20,703 bases of DNA from Thermoplasmata archaeon. Its GTDB lineage: Archaea > Thermoplasmatota > SW-10-69-26 > JACQPN01 > JAJPHT01. The notes beneath the pieces were generated by a model. The model was not told where the DNA came from. It made no database searches and saw only the letters and a program-made list of their open reading frames with translations. Below, in pieces: positions 6,465 to 18,961 of the stretch (the stretch's first letter is position 1; the number at the start of each line of letters is the position of its first letter). The stretch covers positions 1-20,703 of the forward strand of contig JAXDQU010000072.1 of the NCBI GenBank assembly GCA_034667685.1, given 5' to 3'. The position numbers and the translations under genes were made by a program.

Positions 6465-6548
6465 TCCCCAGCCTCAGCCTGAGCCTAAGCCTTGGCCCCC
6501 GTGGCAGGCGCCGGAGGCCAAGGCTAAGGCGCGGGCTGAGGCTGGGGA
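6465..6548. repeat. 33-bp imperfect inverted repeat built from AGCCTN hexamers (REP/MITE-like palindrome)
   Basis: Left arm 6465-6497 TCCCCAGCCTCAGCCTGAGCCTAAGCCTTGGCC matches the reverse complement of right arm 6516-6548 at 30/33 positions; 18-nt loop. Confidence 0.9.
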
Positions 6549-10636: not shown

Positions 10637-12013
10637 ATGAGCCTGACCCTGTCGCGCCGCGTCGTCGCGCACCTCGCCGTCCACCCCGTGCCGGAGGGCG
10701 CGGGCAGCGTGCCGCGCGAGGTCACGCAGGACGGCATCGCGGAGTCGCTGGGCGTCCAGGTCGCGCACGTCTCCCGCGCGCTCAAGGGGCTCGTCGCCGA
10801 AGGGCTCGTGCACGCCTACCTCGCGCATCCGAAGGGCGCCCGGCGCCGCAGCCGCGCGCACGTGCTCACCGACGCCGGCTACGCGCTGGCGCGCTCGCTG
10901 CCCAAGGAGCCGCCCGCCACCGTGACGCGCCGCGCGCCCGCGCAGGTCCCCGCGCCGCGCGTGCCCGCCGGCCGCGAGCGCGCGTTCGAGGAGCTCGTCG
11001 CGCTCTACGACTCCGCGCTCAAGGAAGGCCCGCGCATCGGTCTCGTCGAGGGCGCGGCCGGCATGGGCAAGTCGCGCCTCTTGGCCGCCTTCGCCGCGGA
11101 GGCCCAGCGCCGCGGCGCGCGTGTGCTATCAGGCGCCTCGGTCCCGGTGGGCGGCGAGCAGTGGCTCGGCCCGCTCGCGGCCGCGCTCGCGCCGCTCGGG
11201 CTCGACGCCCGCCTCCGCGCGCGCCCCGGCGGAACGCCCCGCGAGCGCGCGATGGAGGCCGCGCGCGAGACGGTCCTCGTGGGCGCGCAGTCCGCGCCGC
11301 TCGTGGTGCTGCTCGACGACCTGCATCACGCGGGCCCGGGCGCCGTCGAGTTCCTGCACGGCCTCTTCCTCGCGCTCCCGCAGGGCACGCGCGCGCTGTT
11401 CGTCGCCGCGTTCCGCCGCGAGGAGGCGTGGGCGCTTCCCAACGGTCCGCTCTACACCGCGCTCATGCCGGTGCGCGACCTCCCGCGCGCGAAGCTCGTC
11501 ACGCTCGGGCCGCTCGACGCGATGGCCGTCGGGTCGCTCCTGGAGGAGGCGGGCGTGCACATCCTGGGCGACAAGCGGCTCCCCGGGGACGTCGTGTCGC
11601 GCGTCTGGCGCGAGAGCGCGGGCAACCCCGCCTACGCGCTGGCGATGGGCGCGGAGCTGGCCGACGGCGTCGACGAGGAGGACTTCTTCCCCGCGAGCGT
11701 GCGGGCCGCGGCGCGCGAGAAAATCGCGAGCCTCGACGAGCGCCAGCTTGGCGTGCTCCAGCTCGCGGCCGTCGCGGGCGCCGAGTTCCCCTATCCCGTC
11801 CTCGCGCGCGCCCACGAGGGCAAGGAGGACGAGCTCGTCGCGGTCCTCGACCACCTGCTCGACAAGCTGTTCCTGGAGGAGTCGGCGGGCGGCGGGGGCG
11901 AGCTCGTGCTGCGCTTCGAGCACCCGAAGCTCCGCGAGGCCGTGCTCGGCGACCTGACCGCGAACCGCCGCCGCTGGCTCGAAGCGCGCGTCGCAGCCGC
12001 CCACGCGGCTTAA
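10637..12013 (+). CDS. Winged-helix DNA-binding domain fused to a STAND-type (AAA_16-like) ATPase
   Basis: TQDGIAESLGVQVAHVSRALKGLVAEGLV..LTDAG (wHTH); GRERAFEEL; Walker A GAAGMGKS; Walker B VVLLDDLH; SAGNPAY; FEHPKLRE. Confidence 0.88.
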   Translation: MSLTLSRRVVAHLAVHPVPEGAGSVPREVTQDGIAESLGVQVAHVSRALKGLVAEGLVHAYLAHPKGARRRSRAHVLTDAGYALARSLPKEPPATVTRRAPAQVPAPRVPAGRERAFEELVALYDSALKEGPRIGLVEGAAGMGKSRLLAAFAAEAQRRGARVLSGASVPVGGEQWLGPLAAALAPLGLDARLRARPGGTPRERAMEAARETVLVGAQSAPLVVLLDDLHHAGPGAVEFLHGLFLALPQGTRALFVAAFRREEAWALPNGPLYTALMPVRDLPRAKLVTLGPLDAMAVGSLLEEAGVHILGDKRLPGDVVSRVWRESAGNPAYALAMGAELADGVDEEDFFPASVRAAAREKIASLDERQLGVLQLAAVAGAEFPYPVLARAHEGKEDELVAVLDHLLDKLFLEESAGGGGELVLRFEHPKLREAVLGDLTANRRRWLEARVAAAHAA

Positions 12014-12015
12014 GT
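12009..12015 (+). promoter_or_regulatory. Putative TATA box (CTTAAGT) overlapping the upstream TAA stop
   Basis: TTAA ends 24 nt before GTG 12038. Confidence 0.5.
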
Positions 12016-12037
12016 GGGGTCCCCGCGCTGCCGCCTT

Positions 12038-12802
12038 GTGGCGCCGCGACGATGGCTCCTGCTCATCCTCGCCATCCTCTCGCTGGTCCTGCTGGTGGGC
12101 GGCGTGCTCTCGCTCGCGTTCTCCACGACGCTCTCGGGCCCAGCGGCCGACGCCGCGCGCCTGCCCGGCGAGGCCGAACCCCACGGCGGCGAGCGCGTCT
12201 TCGCGCTGCCGATCCAGGACGTCACGCAGGTGCCCACCGTCGTCTCGGGCGGGAACGACACGATCCTCATGCGGCCCGGCGCGCTGCTCGTCGTCGCCGA
12301 CGCGCCCGTCGAGTTCCCTTCCAGCGCGGCCAACGTGAGCGTCGTGCGCGCGCTCGCGTACGTCTCGCCGGGCGCCAACGGGAGCTATCCCTCGCCCACG
12401 CTCCAGCTTGCGAACCTCACCGCGGTGAGCGGGGGCAACCTCACCACGTTCAACGCCAGCGTCGAGGTCACGCCGCTCGCGCTGGGCAAGGCCGGCTTCA
12501 TCGTGAAGGCCGACACGGCGGACGGCTCCGCGATCCGCTTCGTGGCGCAGGAGCGCGTGCTGGGCCAAGCCGCGTTGTACGTCGAGCCCCCGCAGCTCCT
12601 CTGGCTGATCGTGCTGAGCGCCGCGGGCTTCCTCGCGCCCATCGGCTGGCTCATCCTCACGCATCGCCCCAGCGGCACGCGCGGCATCCCGGGCGGCGTC
12701 TCGGGCGTGACCAACGCCTGCCCCGAGTGCCGCGCGCCCCTCGCGCCGGGGAGCGACTTCTGCACGCGCTGCGGCGCCTGGCTCAAGGAGGCCAAGCCGT
12801 GA
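12038..12802 (+). CDS. Membrane protein with extracellular domain and C-terminal zinc ribbon
   Basis: N-terminal TM, N-x-S/T-rich loop (NDT, NVS, NGS, NLT, NAS), second TM, then CPECRAPLAPGSDFCTRCG. Confidence 0.8.
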   Translation: MAPRRWLLLILAILSLVLLVGGVLSLAFSTTLSGPAADAARLPGEAEPHGGERVFALPIQDVTQVPTVVSGGNDTILMRPGALLVVADAPVEFPSSAANVSVVRALAYVSPGANGSYPSPTLQLANLTAVSGGNLTTFNASVEVTPLALGKAGFIVKADTADGSAIRFVAQERVLGQAALYVEPPQLLWLIVLSAAGFLAPIGWLILTHRPSGTRGIPGGVSGVTNACPECRAPLAPGSDFCTRCGAWLKEAKP

Positions 12803-12951
12803 GCGAGGTCGCGTGCGCCGTCTGCGGCATGGCCTTCGAGGAGGAGGGTGCGCTGGAGCTTGGCGCGATCCGGCTCGTCCGCGGCGGCAAGACGTTCTGG
12901 TTCTGCTCGCCGCCCTGCGAGAAAGAATTCCTGGCGAAGCACGACGGCTAG
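12799..12951 (+). CDS. Small YHS/TRASH metal-binding protein (50 aa)
   Basis: VSEVACAVCGM...GKTFWFCSPPCEKEF; GTGA start/stop overlap and AAGGAGG SD at 12785-12791. Visible only as the tail of the 11161 ORF in the track. Confidence 0.85.
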   Translation: MSEVACAVCGMAFEEEGALELGAIRLVRGGKTFWFCSPPCEKEFLAKHDG

Positions 12952-12954
12952 GTC

Positions 12955-13482
12955 CTACTCCGCCGTCTCGCGCTCGTGGGGCCGCGCGCCCGCGTCGGTG
13001 AGGAAGCGCCGCAGGTGCGCGAGGTAGGCGTCCGCCCGCGCGTGCGACCAGGCGTCGAGCGCGAGCAGGAGCGCGCCTTCGAGCGCGAGCGCGGCGCCCA
13101 CGGCGACCCAGGCCGCGGCGTCGCGGCGCGCGAGGGCCACGGCGGCGCCCACGACGAGCACGAGGACGTCGAAGCCCGCGGCGTAGCGCAGCGTGGCGCG
13201 CGCGTGGTGCATGCGGGCAAGCTCCGCCGCCTGATATCGTCCCGGGTCCTGGGCGAGCTGCACGGAGAGCGCGTCGCGGCGGCGCGCGGCGCCCGCGTAG
13301 TGCGAGAGCGCGCCGGCGAGCTGGAACGCGCCCACCACGAGCAGCGGCGCGCCCGCCCAGCGGTACGGGCTCCCCACGCGCCAGAGCCACGCGGCCGCGA
13401 CGATGCCCGCGAGCCCCAGGAGCATCGCCACCGTCGCCTCGCGCCGCTCGCCGCGCAGGTAGGTCCGCATCTCTTCGCGCAC
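12955..13482 (-). CDS. Hypothetical membrane protein
   Basis: About 4 TM segments; E..RM...and D..SHARADAY pattern. The start may be ATG 13470. Confidence 0.75.
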   Translation of the reverse strand: MREEMRTYLRGERREATVAMLLGLAGIVAAAWLWRVGSPYRWAGAPLLVVGAFQLAGALSHYAGAARRRDALSVQLAQDPGRYQAAELARMHHARATLRYAAGFDVLVLVVGAAVALARRDAAAWVAVGAALALEGALLLALDAWSHARADAYLAHLRRFLTDAGARPHERETAE

Positions 13483-13512
13483 GGGGCGCCATCCGCGCGG
13501 GGACGCATGGCT

Positions 13513-14709
13513 CTATGCGCGCGACTGGACGACGAACCGGCACGCCGCGTGGCCTTGGCTCCGGCACGCGACCTCGGCGCCCAGCGCGGGGCGGCCCGTC
13601 GCGGCGCCCACGACGCCTTCGAGATAGCCCAGCGCGAGGTGGCACGTGGGCTGCGCGCTCTCCGCGACGACCTCCAGGAGGTCCGCGCCGGTGAACGTGT
13701 AGCGCGCCCCGGCCTGCTCCACGAGGCGCACGTCGCCCCCGCCGAGCGTGCGGAACGCGTCGAGGTAGGCGCCCAGCTCGCGCGGGCCCTCCTCGTTGGC
13801 GCGCGTCACGAGGCGCTTGCCTAGCTCGCGCGTGCGCGTCACGTTGGTCGAGGCCTCGGCGACGTCCCGCAGCAGGAGCCGGACGAGCGTGCGGCTCACG
13901 AGCTGGCTCCGCGCCTCCTCCTCGGCGCGCTTGCGTTCGGTGATGTCGAGCATCTGCGTGATGTAGAGGCGCGGCTTCCCCGCCTCGTCGCGCATCACGC
14001 TGCTCGTGACGTGCCCCCACACGGCGTGGCCGTCCTTGTGGCGATATCGTTTCTCGAAGCGCAGCGTGGGCGTGCGCGACGTGACGAAGTCGTGGCCCGC
14101 GTCGTAGATCGGCTTCTCGTCCTCGGGGAACGTCAGCTTGAGGTAGCTCGCCCCGACGAGCTCCTCCTCGGCGTAGCCCACCATCGCGCAGAAGACGTGG
14201 TTGACGCGGACGTAGGCGCCCTGCGCGTCGAAGATCGCCATGCCCATCGCGGCCTCGTCGAACGCGCGCCGGAAGAGCTCCTCCGTGTCGTGGCGGGACG
14301 CGGCCTCCCGCTTCGCCGCGGTGAGGTCGTGCGCGAAGCTCATGATGAGCAGGCCGGGCGCTTCGGAGAGGTGGACGCTGGAGAGCATCACCGGGATGCG
14401 GCGGCCGTCCTTCGCCACGAGGACCGTCTCGTAGCGCTCGTGGACGGGCACCGTGACGCCCCGCTCCAGGTAGCGCTGCCTGACTTTCGGAAGCTCCTCG
14501 GGCGCCACGAGCGAAAGCATGCTCGGCAGCGCCTGGAGCTCGGCGAGCGTGTAGCCCACGAGGTCGAGGTAGGCCTGGTTGGCGTGGAGCAGCTTGGCCC
14601 CGTCGAGCACCAGCCCTCCCTCTCCCAGGGGGCTCAGCGCGTCGACGAGCCGAATGACCGTGGGCGCGTCCAGCGCCGGGCCTGGGGCTGGGGGCCTGTC
14701 GCTCACCAC
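13513..14709 (-). CDS. PAS-PAS-V4R sensor protein
   Basis: Two PAS/PAC domains (ANQAYLDLVGY..KDGRRIPV; VNHVFCAMVGY..EKRYRHKDG..DITERK) and a V4R-type tail PTCHLALGYLEG..EVACRSQGHAACRF. Confidence 0.88.
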   Translation of the reverse strand: MVSDRPPAPGPALDAPTVIRLVDALSPLGEGGLVLDGAKLLHANQAYLDLVGYTLAELQALPSMLSLVAPEELPKVRQRYLERGVTVPVHERYETVLVAKDGRRIPVMLSSVHLSEAPGLLIMSFAHDLTAAKREAASRHDTEELFRRAFDEAAMGMAIFDAQGAYVRVNHVFCAMVGYAEEELVGASYLKLTFPEDEKPIYDAGHDFVTSRTPTLRFEKRYRHKDGHAVWGHVTSSVMRDEAGKPRLYITQMLDITERKRAEEEARSQLVSRTLVRLLLRDVAEASTNVTRTRELGKRLVTRANEEGPRELGAYLDAFRTLGGGDVRLVEQAGARYTFTGADLLEVVAESAQPTCHLALGYLEGVVGAATGRPALGAEVACRSQGHAACRFVVQSRA

Positions 14710-14730
14710 GGGAGGTTTCGGCGCTTCTTG

Positions 14731-14738
14731 ACTTAATG
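14731..14738 (-). promoter_or_regulatory. Putative TATA box of the PAS-V4R gene
   Basis: Minus-strand CATTAAGT; TTAA lies 23 nt before GTG 14709. Confidence 0.5.
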
Positions 14739-14768
14739 GCCACTGGAAGGTCGCTGGGCTCGGTGGAC

Positions 14769-14938
14769 CTATTCCTGGAACTTGGCGAGGATGGCGTCGT
14801 AGACGCTGCGCTCGTCGCCAGAAGCTTTGCTCTGGAGCCTCTTCAGGATCAGCTCGGGCGTCGAACGGGCCCGGTAGTTCATCCTCGGGCTGCGGTCAAC
14901 GATCAGGTTCAGATGCTCGTCGAGCCCGCGCGCCTCGA
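14769..14938 (-). pseudogene. Duplicated 3' end of the mutS-like gene (possibly expressed as an 80-aa ORF, 14769-15011)
   Basis: Encodes EARGLDEHLNLIVDRSPRMNYRARSTPELILKRLQSKASGDERSVYDAILAKF, identical to the MutS C-terminus, then QE* instead of GAS*. Confidence 0.85.
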
Positions 14939-15187
14939 CACGGCCGGATCGCCTTCGGCGACCGCTCGCTTCGCTCGCTCCCGGCCTATCGAGGCGCGCG
15001 ACGACGAGCATCGTTCAGGAGGCGCCGAACTTCGCGAGGATGGCATCATAGACGCTCCGCTCGTCGCCGGAAGCCTTGCTCTGGAGCCTCTTCAGGATCA
15101 GCTCGGGCGTCGAACGGGCGCGGTAGTTCATCCTCGGGCTGCGGTCAACGATCAGGTTCAGATGCTCGTCGAGCCCGCGCGCCTCGA
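14778..15187. repeat. 161-bp direct repeat pair (14778-14938 and 15027-15187), period 249 bp
   Basis: Manual alignment gives 154/161 identity, no indels. Confidence 0.95.
14912..15012. repeat. 101-nt branched hairpin at the duplication junction
   Basis: 14912-14922 pairs with 15002-15012 (11 bp); 14927-14938 with 14989-15000 (12 bp); GGCCGG 14942-14947 with CCGGCC 14981-14986; inner TCGCC-TTC-GGCGA. Confidence 0.85.
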
Positions 15188-16913
15188 TGCCATCGATCCG
15201 CACGCGGGTGTATTGCGAGACCTGCTCGGCCATGTGCGTGACGCAGACGCCGTAGCTGCCCGTCTCGCGGAGCATCTCGATGAAGGTGCCCACGATCTTG
15301 CTCGCGGCCTCCAGCTCGGTCATGGCCTCCAGCTCGTCGGCGAGGACGAGCTTCGCGCCCCTGCTCGTCACGATGGGGAGGAAGCCCTTGAGGAAGCTCT
15401 CGAAGGCGCCCGCGTCGAGCGACCGCTTCTGCGTGAAGAAGTAGACCCCCTCCACGTGCGGGACGGTGGCCGACCTCGCGTTGACCGGGAGCCCCAGGTG
15501 CGCGAGGATGGCGACCTGGCTGAGCGTCTCCAGGAGCGTCGTCTTGCCGCCCGAGTTGGCGCCCGTGAGCAGGGCGACCTGGTGCTGCCTGTCGAGCAGG
15601 TAGTCGATCGGCGCGCCCCCCGCCCGCGCGAGGTTGAGATGGAGCGCGCCCTCGACGCGCAGCTCCTTGCCGAACGTCGCGGGCTCCAGGCCGTACTCCA
15701 GCGCGAAGCTGCCCAGGGCGAAGGCGTAGTCGAACTCCAGGAGCGCGTGGACCTCGGCCTCGGCCTTCTCGCGCAGGCCGCCGAGCTTCCGGGCCGCGTC
15801 GACCTTCACGCGGAACGCGGCGCGCTTCTTGCGCCCTTCCAATTCCTGGCGCTTGCGCTCCATCGCCTCCTCGTCGATCTTGACGGGGAAGCCGTCGGTG
15901 AAGACCTGCGTGAAGTCCTCGCCCGTCTCGCGCATCAGGCGCTCGCGCCCCTCGCGGAGCACGCTGGCCTGGAGGTCGCGCACCTTGCGCGGCGTCCTGC
16001 CGGACATCATCTCCAGCACCTCGTCGCCGCTCATGCTGAGCGACTTCGAGCGCGCGGCGGTCTCGGCGTTGATCCACGCGATGGCGTCGGCGAGGCTCTT
16101 CTCGACCGCGGCGAAGCTGAACTCTTTCTGCTGGAGGCCGTCGAGCGTGTCGAGGATCGCGCGCATGGCCGAGGGCCGCCCCAGGATGCCGGAGAGCTCC
16201 AGCGCGGACTCCCAGATGGCGCGGTTCTCGCGGAAGTAGGCGAGCGCGGCGTCGGGCACGAGGTCGGCGACGTGGCGGCTGAAGGGGACCTGGATGACGT
16301 TCTCCGCGCCGGTGAGGTCGAGCAGTCCCTGCGAATAGGCGTAGACGAGGACCTCGTTCCCGGGCGTGCCGTCGTCGGCGGTGCTGACCTGGCAGACGCG
16401 GTCGACGCCGGCCTTCACGAGCGCCTCGTAGTCGGCCTGCGTGTCGACGACGACGCAGACCGTGCTGTCGAACTTCGGCCTCGGCTGGCGCGGCTTGGCG
16501 AGCCGGCCCAGGAGCTTGGCGACCGCGGCGCGGTCGAGGCCCGCGACGCGCTTGCGCGACTCCTGCACGAAGGCGAGGCGCTCCTTCGCCTCCTTGGGCG
16601 GGACGGGGACGAGGAGCGCGATCTTGTTGCGGGCGTGCGCGGTGTTGGCGAAGGCGCCGATGCGGGCGAGCACGTCCTCGTAGAGCGTCTCGGCGCGCGG
16701 CGTGCGCAGGAAGTCGGCCGGCGCGCGGCCCTGGACGCGGAGCACCAGCTCGACGGCCTTGCGCTCCGAGATGCCTTCGACGGCCGCGATGCGGTCCACC
16801 TGCGAGGCGCGCGCGGCCTCGTAGAACGCCTCGGCGCCGCCGAACTCCTTCACGAGCCGCTCCGCGAGGGCCTCGCCCACGCCGGGCAGGTCGGTGAGCG
16901 GCGCAGGGGCCAT
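15015..16913 (-). CDS. mutS: Archaeal MutS5/MutS2-like ATPase (N-terminal helix-hairpin-helix plus MutS domain V)
   Basis: LTDLPGVGEALAERL and VEGISERKA HhH motifs; Walker A LTGANSGGKTT; LVLADELEAMTE; CVTHM; RSTPELI. No mismatch-binding domain I and no Smr domain seen. Alternative start GTG 16940. Confidence 0.9.
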   Translation of the reverse strand: MAPAPLTDLPGVGEALAERLVKEFGGAEAFYEAARASQVDRIAAVEGISERKAVELVLRVQGRAPADFLRTPRAETLYEDVLARIGAFANTAHARNKIALLVPVPPKEAKERLAFVQESRKRVAGLDRAAVAKLLGRLAKPRQPRPKFDSTVCVVVDTQADYEALVKAGVDRVCQVSTADDGTPGNEVLVYAYSQGLLDLTGAENVIQVPFSRHVADLVPDAALAYFRENRAIWESALELSGILGRPSAMRAILDTLDGLQQKEFSFAAVEKSLADAIAWINAETAARSKSLSMSGDEVLEMMSGRTPRKVRDLQASVLREGRERLMRETGEDFTQVFTDGFPVKIDEEAMERKRQELEGRKKRAAFRVKVDAARKLGGLREKAEAEVHALLEFDYAFALGSFALEYGLEPATFGKELRVEGALHLNLARAGGAPIDYLLDRQHQVALLTGANSGGKTTLLETLSQVAILAHLGLPVNARSATVPHVEGVYFFTQKRSLDAGAFESFLKGFLPIVTSRGAKLVLADELEAMTELEAASKIVGTFIEMLRETGSYGVCVTHMAEQVSQYTRVRIDGIEARGLDEHLNLIVDRSPRMNYRARSTPELILKRLQSKASGDERSVYDAILAKFGAS

Positions 16914-17018
16914 CTTGTCAGGTTGCGCGAGCACGGCCACGGTGCATCCCTGGTGCGACCGCAGCGCGTTTCCAGAATTGGCCTTGAGGGAGGGAAGAGC
17001 GAAACTGCTCCCCGGCTC

Positions 17019-18819: not shown

Positions 18820-18833
18820 CTGGTTCTCTTATC

Positions 18834-18907
18834 CTCCAGCCACAGAGGTCACAGAGGCGGTGGAATTCCCTCGTCCTCTGTGACCTCTGTGTCCTCTGTG
18901 GCTGGAG
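18834..18907. repeat. Palindrome built from 9-bp NCACAGAGG / CCTCTGTGN units
   Basis: CTCCAGC-CACAGAGG-TCACAGAGG (18834-18857) versus CCTCTGTGA-CCTCTGTGT-CCTCTGTG-GCTGGAG (18875-18907). Confidence 0.9.
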
Positions 18908-18961
18908 AAGGGGCCAGGCGTTGGCAAAGGCCTGATAGCGCACGACCTGGGATCACGGGCC

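Follow-up and report, generated by a model that had tools for sequence, protein, structure and literature searches.

A recurrent hairpin between duplicated gene ends in a soil Thermoplasmatota genome: a possible gene-less mobile cassette

The stretch of DNA analysed here (the window, 20,703 nt) is the entire contig C72 of G000, a metagenome-assembled genome (MAG) of a soil member of the Thermoplasmatota (3.48 Mb in 124 contigs, 99% complete), and our subject is a hairpin-bearing spacer that lies in it between two copies of the end of one gene. The archaeal small-subunit (SSU) model matches G000 over its full length with 1498 bits and is the Rfam clan winner, and the sequencing runs that contain the window are soil metagenomes, with no RNA run among those listed. 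The host gene (15015..16940, minus strand, 641 amino acids) encodes a distant MutS-family ATPase with an N-terminal helix-hairpin-helix. The original prediction, made from the letters of the window, had called it mutS, which is right for the family and only distantly so: a Pfam scan gave HHH_5 at 31.3 bits and MutS_V at 24.9 bits, under the cut-off of 30.2, and the MutS2 and KamC models of NCBIfam reached ∼77 bits, far under their cut-offs. Orthologues in other Thermoplasmatota MAGs share 79-86% amino acid identity with it.

The last 53 codons of the gene lie inside a direct repeat (DR) of 161 nt (14778-14938 versus 15027-15187), the two copies of which are 96% identical and are separated by 88 nt. 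All parts of the locus are read on the minus strand. The gene-attached copy (DR1, 15027..15187) is the terminal coding part of the present gene, which ends with the codons G-A-S and the stop TGA (tail 15015..15026, stop 15015-15017). Two nucleotides further on (15013-15014) begins a 25-nt inverted copy of the start of the repeat, the arm (a*, 14988..15012), and this is followed by a 49-nt hairpin, H (14939..14987), a long-loop variant that reads in gene sense AGGCCGG, a 33-nt loop and CCGGCCGTG. The loop contains GCGAAGC and C-GAA-G mini-hairpins. Beyond H lies the orphan copy of the gene end (DR2, 14778-14938), which with its own tail Q-E and stop TAG (14769-14771), unlike the tail of the present gene, occupies 14769..14938; the next gene begins ∼25 nt past it. 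Both tails of the window (FQE-stop and FGAS-stop) have counterparts in relatives (KFAE-stop, RFSE-stop and RFGAPASR-stop), a match of only 6-9 nt, and the orphan tail resembles the xE-stop tails of same-genus orthologues.

The arm makes the spacer fold back on the repeat. Perfect 11-nt arms (14912-14922 and 15002-15012) are followed by a stem of 12-13 nt and then by the GGCCGG/CCGGCC stem of the hairpin, and a 3-nt deletion in the arm relative to the repeat start leaves a 4x1 internal loop. With the intact gene copy the arm likewise forms perfect inverted matches of 13 nt (15176-15188) and 11 nt (15161-15171). The original prediction had described an inverted copy of the repeat start directly behind the host-gene stop, with 11-bp and 12-bp stems, a 4x1 internal loop, the GGCCGG/CCGGCC stem and a particular apex on the minus strand, and all of these features are present in the sequence as it gave them. 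It had also drawn attention to GTTCA at both flanks. The pentamer is indeed found at 14907-14911 and 15013-15017, but it is absent from the other family members inspected and is therefore probably a coincidence or a local microhomology. Folding of both strands, which the original prediction had proposed as a check, revealed structure far beyond that of shuffled sequences. As RNA, the minus strand of 14900-15025 folds with −75.3 kcal/mol compared with −58.5 ± 3.9 for shuffles (z −4.3, none of 200 shuffles as good). As DNA, the minus strand of the hairpin region gives −45.6 (z −4.3) and the plus strand folds less well (−40.8, z −2.8). No Rfam family reaches its gathering score within the window.

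The hairpin is not confined to the window. G000 holds ∼18 copies of the conserved form GAY-AGGCCGR-loop-YCGGCCGT-GTCG. The IUPAC pattern AGGCCGR-N4-12-YCGGCCGTG alone has 15 matches in G000 compared with none for a reversed control pattern, and 0-4 matches in each of the 60 relatives searched, so that 16 of the 61 genomes have at least one. Outside this pattern fall the two long-loop copies (window and C84) and a variant with one mismatch (C82). The second long-loop core, at G000:C84:15702-15754, is 80% identical to that of the window and lies between two ends of an aconitase-family LeuC/HacA-like gene. Its stem carries compensatory changes relative to the window, and its arm matches its own gene and not the window gene. 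The short-loop copies, for which a motif scan covered both hairpin feet, have apical loops of 4 nt. Sixteen copies could be aligned, with 16 invariant columns, a constant position of the H junction and the consensus CGAT-AGGCCGG-ACCGnAGT-CCGGCCGT-GTCG. In this alignment 99% of the cells pair, compensatory changes occur at 4 pairs and two stem positions covary (GC12/AU4; AU9/GC3/GU3/CG1). Only 2 of the 192 cells are non-standard and 18 are G.U, which indicates that the fold is favoured on the H-sense strand, the mRNA sense at the loci where a gene 3' end is duplicated. The wobbles, together with the better fold of the minus strand, thus support the folding of a gene-sense single strand that the original prediction of a structure-directed integration had supposed; as to the arm, a guide for integration and a by-product of insertion stand on an equal footing. 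The original prediction had further expected copies elsewhere in the genome whose arms change with each local gene, as is the case, and had offered a one-off template switch at a unique core as the alternative. With the C84 core, ∼16 short-loop copies and arms that match their targets, a single accident of this kind is refuted. Among other matches, the long-loop core recurs at G004:C35, where the gene is a paralogous member of the aconitase family and the outer stem is a different one, and a metagenome-wide scan with the long-loop core gave nine stretches, none of which had the full hairpin ends or the layout. A 26-nt BLAST match on C62, considered as a sign of a larger island, proved to be a chance match within another gene.

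The loci share one order, which in H-sense is gene body, DR1, filler, arm, H and DR2. DR1 begins at an N^TCG-like site inside the gene and continues up to the stop codon, and DR2 runs to a stop codon of its own. A duplicated 3' gene end of this type is found at ten G000 loci (C9, C19, C72, C76, C79, C82, C84, C106, C118 and C124:63703). The arm repeats the first 9-50 nt of DR1 imperfectly and in inverted orientation, covers DR1 entirely at C19 and C118, and differs at every locus, in each case matching the local gene. The repeats range from 12 nt (C106) through 161 nt (window) to about 150-205 nt (C84 and G004:C35), and the spacers between the copies from 20 to 110 nt. The left end is weakly conserved. 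In several cassettes a mini-hairpin motif (GCCGCAGCG.. or GCGAAGCGAA) recurs there directly behind the stop codon; the filler directly after the stop is GCCGCAG(CGAA) at C79, C118, C124:63703 and C82, and GCGAAGCGAA at C19 and C76. Oligo-T tracts follow DR2, not DR1, at C9, C19, C106 and C118. The same layout occurs in the relatives G003 and G008, in the latter both at a protein gene (L063) and at a tRNA-Met gene in which H is inserted and the last 16 nt are duplicated. At C39, G003 L060 and G003 L061/L066, H is antisense to the gene and it is the 5' end, up to the start codon, that is duplicated. At C55, H is inserted in frame within the interior of an NFACT-family gene, and six further copies (C11, C21, C98, C108, C124:4044 and C124:91748) have an arm or nothing clear beside them. 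Tandem re-insertion at one site is seen at G003 L061/L066, where two H units share one 5' end, and in the rpoN gene of G004.

The identified hosts are the genes for RpoN, RadA, the ribosomal proteins S10, S2 and S7, dihydroorotate dehydrogenase and DnaG primase, the aconitase-family gene and the MutS-like gene, most of which are conserved core housekeeping genes, with a tRNA gene as host in G008. Three ribosomal proteins along with RpoN, RadA and DnaG among about ten hosts are, by informal judgement, far from a random draw. Conserved core genes and tRNAs are classical targets of integrating elements. The corresponding sites in relatives are empty. For the window gene, orthologous matches in 11 relatives end at the gene end and none has the spacer; the downstream DNA is unrelated in the three orthologues inspected, and the gene order past the MutS-like gene differs from that of the same-genus genomes. 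G002-G008 match only the intact gene of the C84 locus, without the insertion. A gene with a DAC domain follows the orthologue in G003 as it does in G000, and this conserved synteny marks the G000 insertion as a local event. The rpoN gene is matched in seven genomes of the family over its coding part only, without H, and an f-like mini-hairpin naturally follows the gene in G003. For radA, all 13 genomes of the order that have a match end at the stop codon; G004 has no radA match.

The two gene ends at a locus differ in a characteristic manner. Codons were compared at nine loci (162 codons) selected by at least 62% ungapped nucleotide identity, a set to which C82 does not belong and from which the C108 row was dropped as spurious, its best 'DR1' match being 11/15 nt at an arbitrary place with unrelated peptides. 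DR1 and DR2 differ at 50 codons, at 46 of them synonymously, and three of the four replacements lie at the distal edge of the repeat. The nucleotide differences are distributed over the three codon positions as 8/5/49, and stop codons are retained in both copies at the compared loci. In rpoN, five of seven codons differ, all synonymously, and the stops are TGA versus TAG. The two copies share 16 of 21 nt compared with 93% identity of the whole G000 rpoN gene to that of G003, so that they were probably different before they were joined. At C84, 20 of 49 codons differ synonymously, serine TCG/AGC switches included. Here the GC content of third codon positions in the gene falls from 0.95-1.0 to 0.70-0.85 in the DR1 part, and identity to G003 falls there from 82-95% to 73-82%. 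In the diverged pairs the similarity ends exactly at the stop or start codon, as would be expected of orthologous ends that come from different lineages. The arm agrees with DR1 at 12 of the 14 sites at which DR1 and DR2 differ, and for this reason DR1, arm and H look like one unit. The synonymous pattern excludes neutral decay of the orphan copy: either each copy was a functional end in a lineage of its own before the two came together, or both remain under constraint.

We tentatively propose, at a probability of about 40%, that the spacer of the window is a member of a small family of non-autonomous cassettes, mobilised in trans, that replace a gene end and displace the native one. The right end of the cassette would be the conserved hairpin H, which is similar to a repetitive extragenic palindrome (REP), and the locus-specific arm would lie between the left motif and H. 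DR1, tail, arm and H would arrive as one piece fused to the gene, while the native end, displaced, would survive as the orphan DR2. Since the incoming piece would bring a substitute gene end, the host gene would stay intact. On a gene-sense strand folded as single-stranded DNA or RNA, the arm would pair with the start of the adjacent gene-end copy and so place a double-stranded copy of the target at the base of a hairpin that a protein recognises; a trans-acting enzyme could join this structure to a chromosomal N^TCG. New cassettes would probably be born by a template switch that copies the target in the order direct-inverted-direct, and in mRNA the hairpins would lie in the 3' untranslated region (UTR) and may also stabilise the transcript. 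The layout does not fit any described mobile element. Whether it represents a new kind of element is a more doubtful proposition: this would be a gene-less, retargetable archaeal homing cassette of 50-250 nt, with a folded strand that presents its own target, pairing-directed integration, a synonymous swap of the ends of essential genes, and spread across species by way of conserved genes and tRNAs.

The enzyme such a cassette would depend on was sought in G000 itself. Y1_Tnp (PF01797) has no match in this 99%-complete genome, with a positive control in 6 of 14 reference genomes, and the reverse transcriptase domain RVT_1 (PF00078), the TnpB zinc ribbon (PF07282) and the IS110 DEDD domain (PF01548) are likewise without matches there. 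This absence is weak evidence, since mobile genes are often missing from MAGs. G000 does encode five tyrosine recombinases (Phage_integrase). Three are within ∼450 bp of a tRNA gene (Val, Arg and Ser) and one is ∼2 kb away from another (Glu); these four tRNA-adjacent genes (C25:35404-36108, C79:16563-17589, C78:20886-21947 and C1:11832-14505) probably belong to ordinary integrated elements, and none of the five adjoins a hairpin copy. Three GIY-YIG domains score above cut-off and none is linked to H. The original prediction had proposed a search for tyrosine recombinase, HUH or GIY-YIG genes that accompany the hairpin; the first and last of these are present in the genome, none is linked to H, and Y1/HUH enzymes were not detected.

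Several observations weigh against a mobilised cassette. No trans-acting enzyme for H was identified in G000, and a single recombinase acting on ∼18 unrelated targets would to our knowledge be unprecedented, unless pairing does the targeting. When the 90 nt that follow each H on its right were used as BLAST queries, neither a second copy at a distance nor a full-length gene-bearing element that ends in arm and H emerged. Compensatory changes in palindromes can arise by template-switch correction without selection. The junction falls in the same codon phase at all nine loci, which was considered as a sign of translation and is explained by the TCG motif and codon bias: the phase is constant because the TCG target motif stands mostly in one codon frame (in the host genes T is at codon position 2 in 205 of 267 TCGs, a chance of 0.77 per locus). 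At C84 the two copies differ from the G003 orthologue at 25 and 21 synonymous codons of 49 and are thus about equally distant from it, and no nearer to it than to one another, so that neither is clearly foreign. Codons ending in A or T at synonymous sites number 18 in DR1 only and 10 in DR2 only, a weak trend in codon usage that does not serve as proof of a foreign origin of DR1. The copies at C82 are identical (18/18) to a point 4 nt past the stop, and those at C76 (64/66) and in the repeated part of the window (153/159) are nearly identical, the pattern that a simple in situ duplication of the target leaves. At the G008 locus, finally, the arm agrees with DR2 at two of two sites, which are the two exceptions to its agreement with DR1.

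The main rival is duplication in place, a course of events that we regard as possible. H, an element similar to a REP or a MITE (a miniature transposable element with inverted repeats), would enter at N^TCG during replication, and snap-back template switching on a displaced flap or nascent strand would copy the target in the order direct-inverted-direct; because a duplication near the terminus regenerates a complete gene, only such insertions would survive, and the synonymous differences would come later, by homologous recombination with uninterrupted alleles of the population. The copies stand in the order known from inverted triplications and tandem inversion duplications, both of which are accounted for by models of template switching during replication (PMC4689423 and PMC10766183). 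An arm that covers the whole of DR1, as at C19 and C118, would be a full snap-back, the loci with identical or nearly identical repeats, non-coding bases included (C82, C76 and the window), would be young, and the burst in copy number is confined to G000 (15 versus 0-4). The later recombination is harder to accommodate: short repeats (12-27 nt) that differ at most third positions, as at C9 and C19 (16/21 nt each), cannot recombine homologously, and they are more diverged than the host gene is from that of a sister species. Duplication in place followed by neutral decay of DR2 would account for the agreement of the arm with DR1 at 12 of 14 sites only with random changes in DR2, whereas those observed are synonymous. 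Nor does it predict an enrichment of informational genes. A mobilised cassette and duplication in place may be stages of one life cycle, with birth by template switching and spread as a unit. It is improbable, by comparison, that no mobile element is involved and that the loci are recurrent accidents of quasi-palindromes and tandem inversion duplication, or scars of templated end joining, at highly transcribed gene ends into which H, a terminator-like hairpin, was copied. The genome is rich in hairpins, unrelated ones lie in similar duplications (C111, C58, C75, C54, C12 and rpoN of G004), the f-like mini-hairpin is native behind rpoN in G003 and the hosts are highly expressed genes. However, the ends of H are conserved across 18 unrelated loci, the orthologous empty sites are without it, the junction is at a fixed position of H, the reversed pattern has no match, and a divergence that is synonymous only would go unexplained.

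Selection by the host for a 3'-UTR RNA element, which might protect the 3' end of the mRNA, tune termination or translation, or act through pairing of the arm with the coding end, with mobility as a secondary matter, has in our estimate little probability. The G.U wobbles in H and in the arms are specific to the sense strand, the stability of the RNA fold given above is consistent with such an element, and the oligo-T tracts behind DR2 at four loci would place the hairpins and DR2 inside the transcript. Three loci (C39, G003 L060 and G003 L061) nevertheless have H antisense at a gene 5' end, C55 has it in frame inside a gene, sister species lack it, the duplicated coding segment finds no explanation, and the window has no Rfam match at gathering score. 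An artefact of assembly in the window, with two strain alleles stitched in tandem or a 249-nt circle or tandem unit threaded once into the contig, is very improbable. A 197-nt unitig covers 14909-15105 without a difference in two soil runs, X1 and X2, possibly the samples from which the genome came, and the spacer junction is thus found in two runs. In favour of an artefact is the depth of the spacer unitig, about half that of the flanks in both (3.49 versus 7.6/7.05 and 4.2 versus 10.5/8.17). Possible causes are an insertion that is polymorphic, a strong hairpin that sequences poorly and a 249-nt form that exists separately; a polymorphic insertion that recombines with empty alleles would also suit duplication in place. 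Also in its favour, the copies share an identical block of 112 nt, longer than the assembly word size, so that unitigs break there, no contig bridges the full structure, and any empty-site allele is hidden in the contigs of the four runs examined. The contigs are therefore compatible with a mixed population in which some members have the 249-nt unit and others lack it. A contig from a relative of ∼95% similarity (X3) contains a joint that extends no more than 21 nt to one side and allows no interpretation. The same layout in four other genomes argues against an artefact, as do C9, C19, C79, C84 and C118, where the junction sequence is unique throughout. At such loci with short or diverged repeats the layout is not a product of the assembly graph.

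Among known systems, the closest in outcome is the prophage e14 type. According to PMC13626634, icd extends into the prophage, an icdC fragment lies on the other side, and excision changes several synonymous icd sites. As there, the gene at the loci described here is kept intact by a supplied end, the native end is orphaned and the copies differ synonymously (46 of 50 codons at nine loci), and, as with tRNA islands too, conserved genes and tRNAs are the targets and excision would give a chimeric gene. Unlike e14, only 50-100 nt lie between the copies, with no integrase or other gene, ∼18 targets come under one hairpin, and the element contains an inverted copy of the target that is absent from att sites. 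The inverted triplications known as tandem inversion duplications (TID), ODIRA and DUP-TRP/INV-DUP share the direct-inverted-direct order and the hairpin-forming junctions, found here in the window and at least nine other loci, but the junctions of TID and ODIRA are unique and derive from short inverted repeats of the parental sequence, whereas the hairpin here recurs and is foreign to the empty site.

Integron attC and the attP of CTX phage, used with XerCD, are folded single-stranded recombination sites. A strand-specific hairpin with bulge or wobble features is common to them and H, a parallel already drawn in the original prediction, recognition in trans and a duplex recombination site made by the arms being in the case of H suppositions. 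The core motifs RYYYAAC and GTTRRRY of attC are absent, the copies having CGAY ... GTCG feet, the targets are neither attI nor dif, and each arm copies its individual target. No IntI was identified among the five tyrosine recombinases of G000, which are not subtyped. Rickettsia palindromic elements are small palindromes tolerated inside protein-coding genes. The in-frame copy at C55 is like them; most copies of H are unlike them and spare the protein by duplication of the gene end. H presumably resembles the E. coli REP consensus. Like the elements of the REP/REPIN-RAYT systems it is non-autonomous, folds as a single strand, usually lies shortly after a stop codon and consists of an imperfect palindrome, short and rich in GC, whose tetranucleotide-like foot is conserved (ATAG/ACAG before GGCCGG). 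It differs from them in its low number (∼18 copies), in the lack of a detected Y1 transposase in G000, in its location inside coding ends and in two features not described for REPs, the duplications of 12-205 nt and the arm derived from the target. As far as its accessible text goes, a paper on archaeal REPs (PMC12306157) places them near stop codons and does not contain the word 'duplication'. Among the titles and abstracts of the literature searched, beyond which lay subscription-only papers and bioRxiv supplements, we found no description of hairpin elements in archaeal gene-end duplications.

Other types of element were considered and rejected. A MITE of the DDE type would have a short target duplication of fixed length, whereas these duplications range from 12 to 205 nt and the left end is weakly conserved. 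Against the IS200/IS605 type speak the lack of a detected TnpA (PF01797) or TnpB (PF07282) and the presence of duplications, and against the bridge-RNA type of IS110/IS1111 the lack of a detected DEDD transposase (PF01548). A diversity-generating retroelement does not agree with the lack of PF00078 or with the differences, which are third-position changes of all kinds, not adenine-specific, and leave the protein unchanged. An archaeal bulge-helix-bulge (BHB) intron is not indicated by the folds, which on inspection, and with no dedicated BHB search, show only the 4x1 internal loop and a 1-nt bulge. Translated read-through into DR2 was also ruled out: the frame is shut by the TAG in GATAGG at the short-loop copies, and the offsets from DR1 to DR2 are not multiples of three (172 nt at C76 and 250 nt at C84). 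The window does have an open reading frame (ORF) of 80 amino acids (14769..15011, minus strand) that starts in the arm and runs through the hairpin into DR2. It belongs to no Pfam family and is probably an incidental open frame; by inspection, the equivalent frame at other loci is closed by a TAG within the hairpin.

Duplicated gene ends also occur in G000 and its relatives with hairpins other than H. A second hairpin family (CGGCTGG-NNNN-CCAGCCG, after GCGTAGGGCG) lies between duplicated gene ends at C111:18835-19145, C58:4145-4365 and C75:9598-9774. The first 33 nt at C111 contain six differences, every one of them synonymous, and the other 91 nt, including 24 nt beyond the stop, only two. 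The rpoN gene of G004 (C132, L070 ∼1660-1820) has its last eight codons and stop at least three times in tandem at its end; these copies differ only synonymously, start at the same GTCGAC site and are parted by a 38-nt hairpin unrelated to H. Two tRNA-Arg genes of G000 (CCG, C8 ∼40201-40400, L016; CCU, C11 ∼62143-62300, L017) have behind them 50-110 nt of filler rich in hairpins, and after it a repeat of their last 14-17 nt, the same logic as at the H loci with other hairpins. At G000:C89:33785-34557 a small gene, its start resembling a signal peptide, is duplicated in tandem over its whole length (311 nt, 92%), with a hairpin-rich spacer of 151 nt.

Further repeats and genes were noted in passing. 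Directly downstream of the orphan copy in the window is an ORF of 1204 amino acids (11129-14743, minus strand) with no Pfam or NCBIfam match. The window also contains a palindromic intergenic repeat of ∼75 nt at 18832-18910, which matches other contigs of G000 in more than 60 BLAST hits, often on both strands of one place, and is a separate high-copy MITE/REP-like family. A high-copy repeat at the end of the contig (20653-20703) has more than 50 matches at 88-100%, many of them at contig ends, so that this family seems to break the assembly. The 84 nt at 6465-6548 are self-complementary, matching their own reverse complement at 83%, and C113 has related copies. The orphan copy at C84 has a palindromic repeat of ∼70 nt close by on its downstream side (G000:C84:15470-15541, L033 ∼470-541), of which there are at least nine more copies (C85, C55, C122, C12, C8 twice, C6, C108 and C50). 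A family of ∼150 nt with multiple hairpins of the C(TTCG)G type (C109:621, C111:5088, C64:8218, C76:26977, C93:7245 and C2:940) is seemingly bounded by the direct repeat TAGCGCC.

Whatever the origin of H, orphan in-frame gene-end fragments beside strong hairpins confuse gene callers and MAG assemblers, and the almost purely synonymous divergence of the copies is an unexplained evolutionary signal that deserves attention. If template switching alone is at work, the loci form a natural series of ∼20 small inverted triplications in which the junction hairpin is defined, a useful one for research on replication template switching in archaea. If instead H belongs to a cassette that replaces gene ends, a selfish insertion would sit cost-free in essential genes, among them those for RNA polymerase, ribosomal proteins, RadA and DnaG, by virtue of the spare gene end that it brings. 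Its targeting would then be by nucleic-acid pairing and not by protein recognition, and the system would be reprogrammable.

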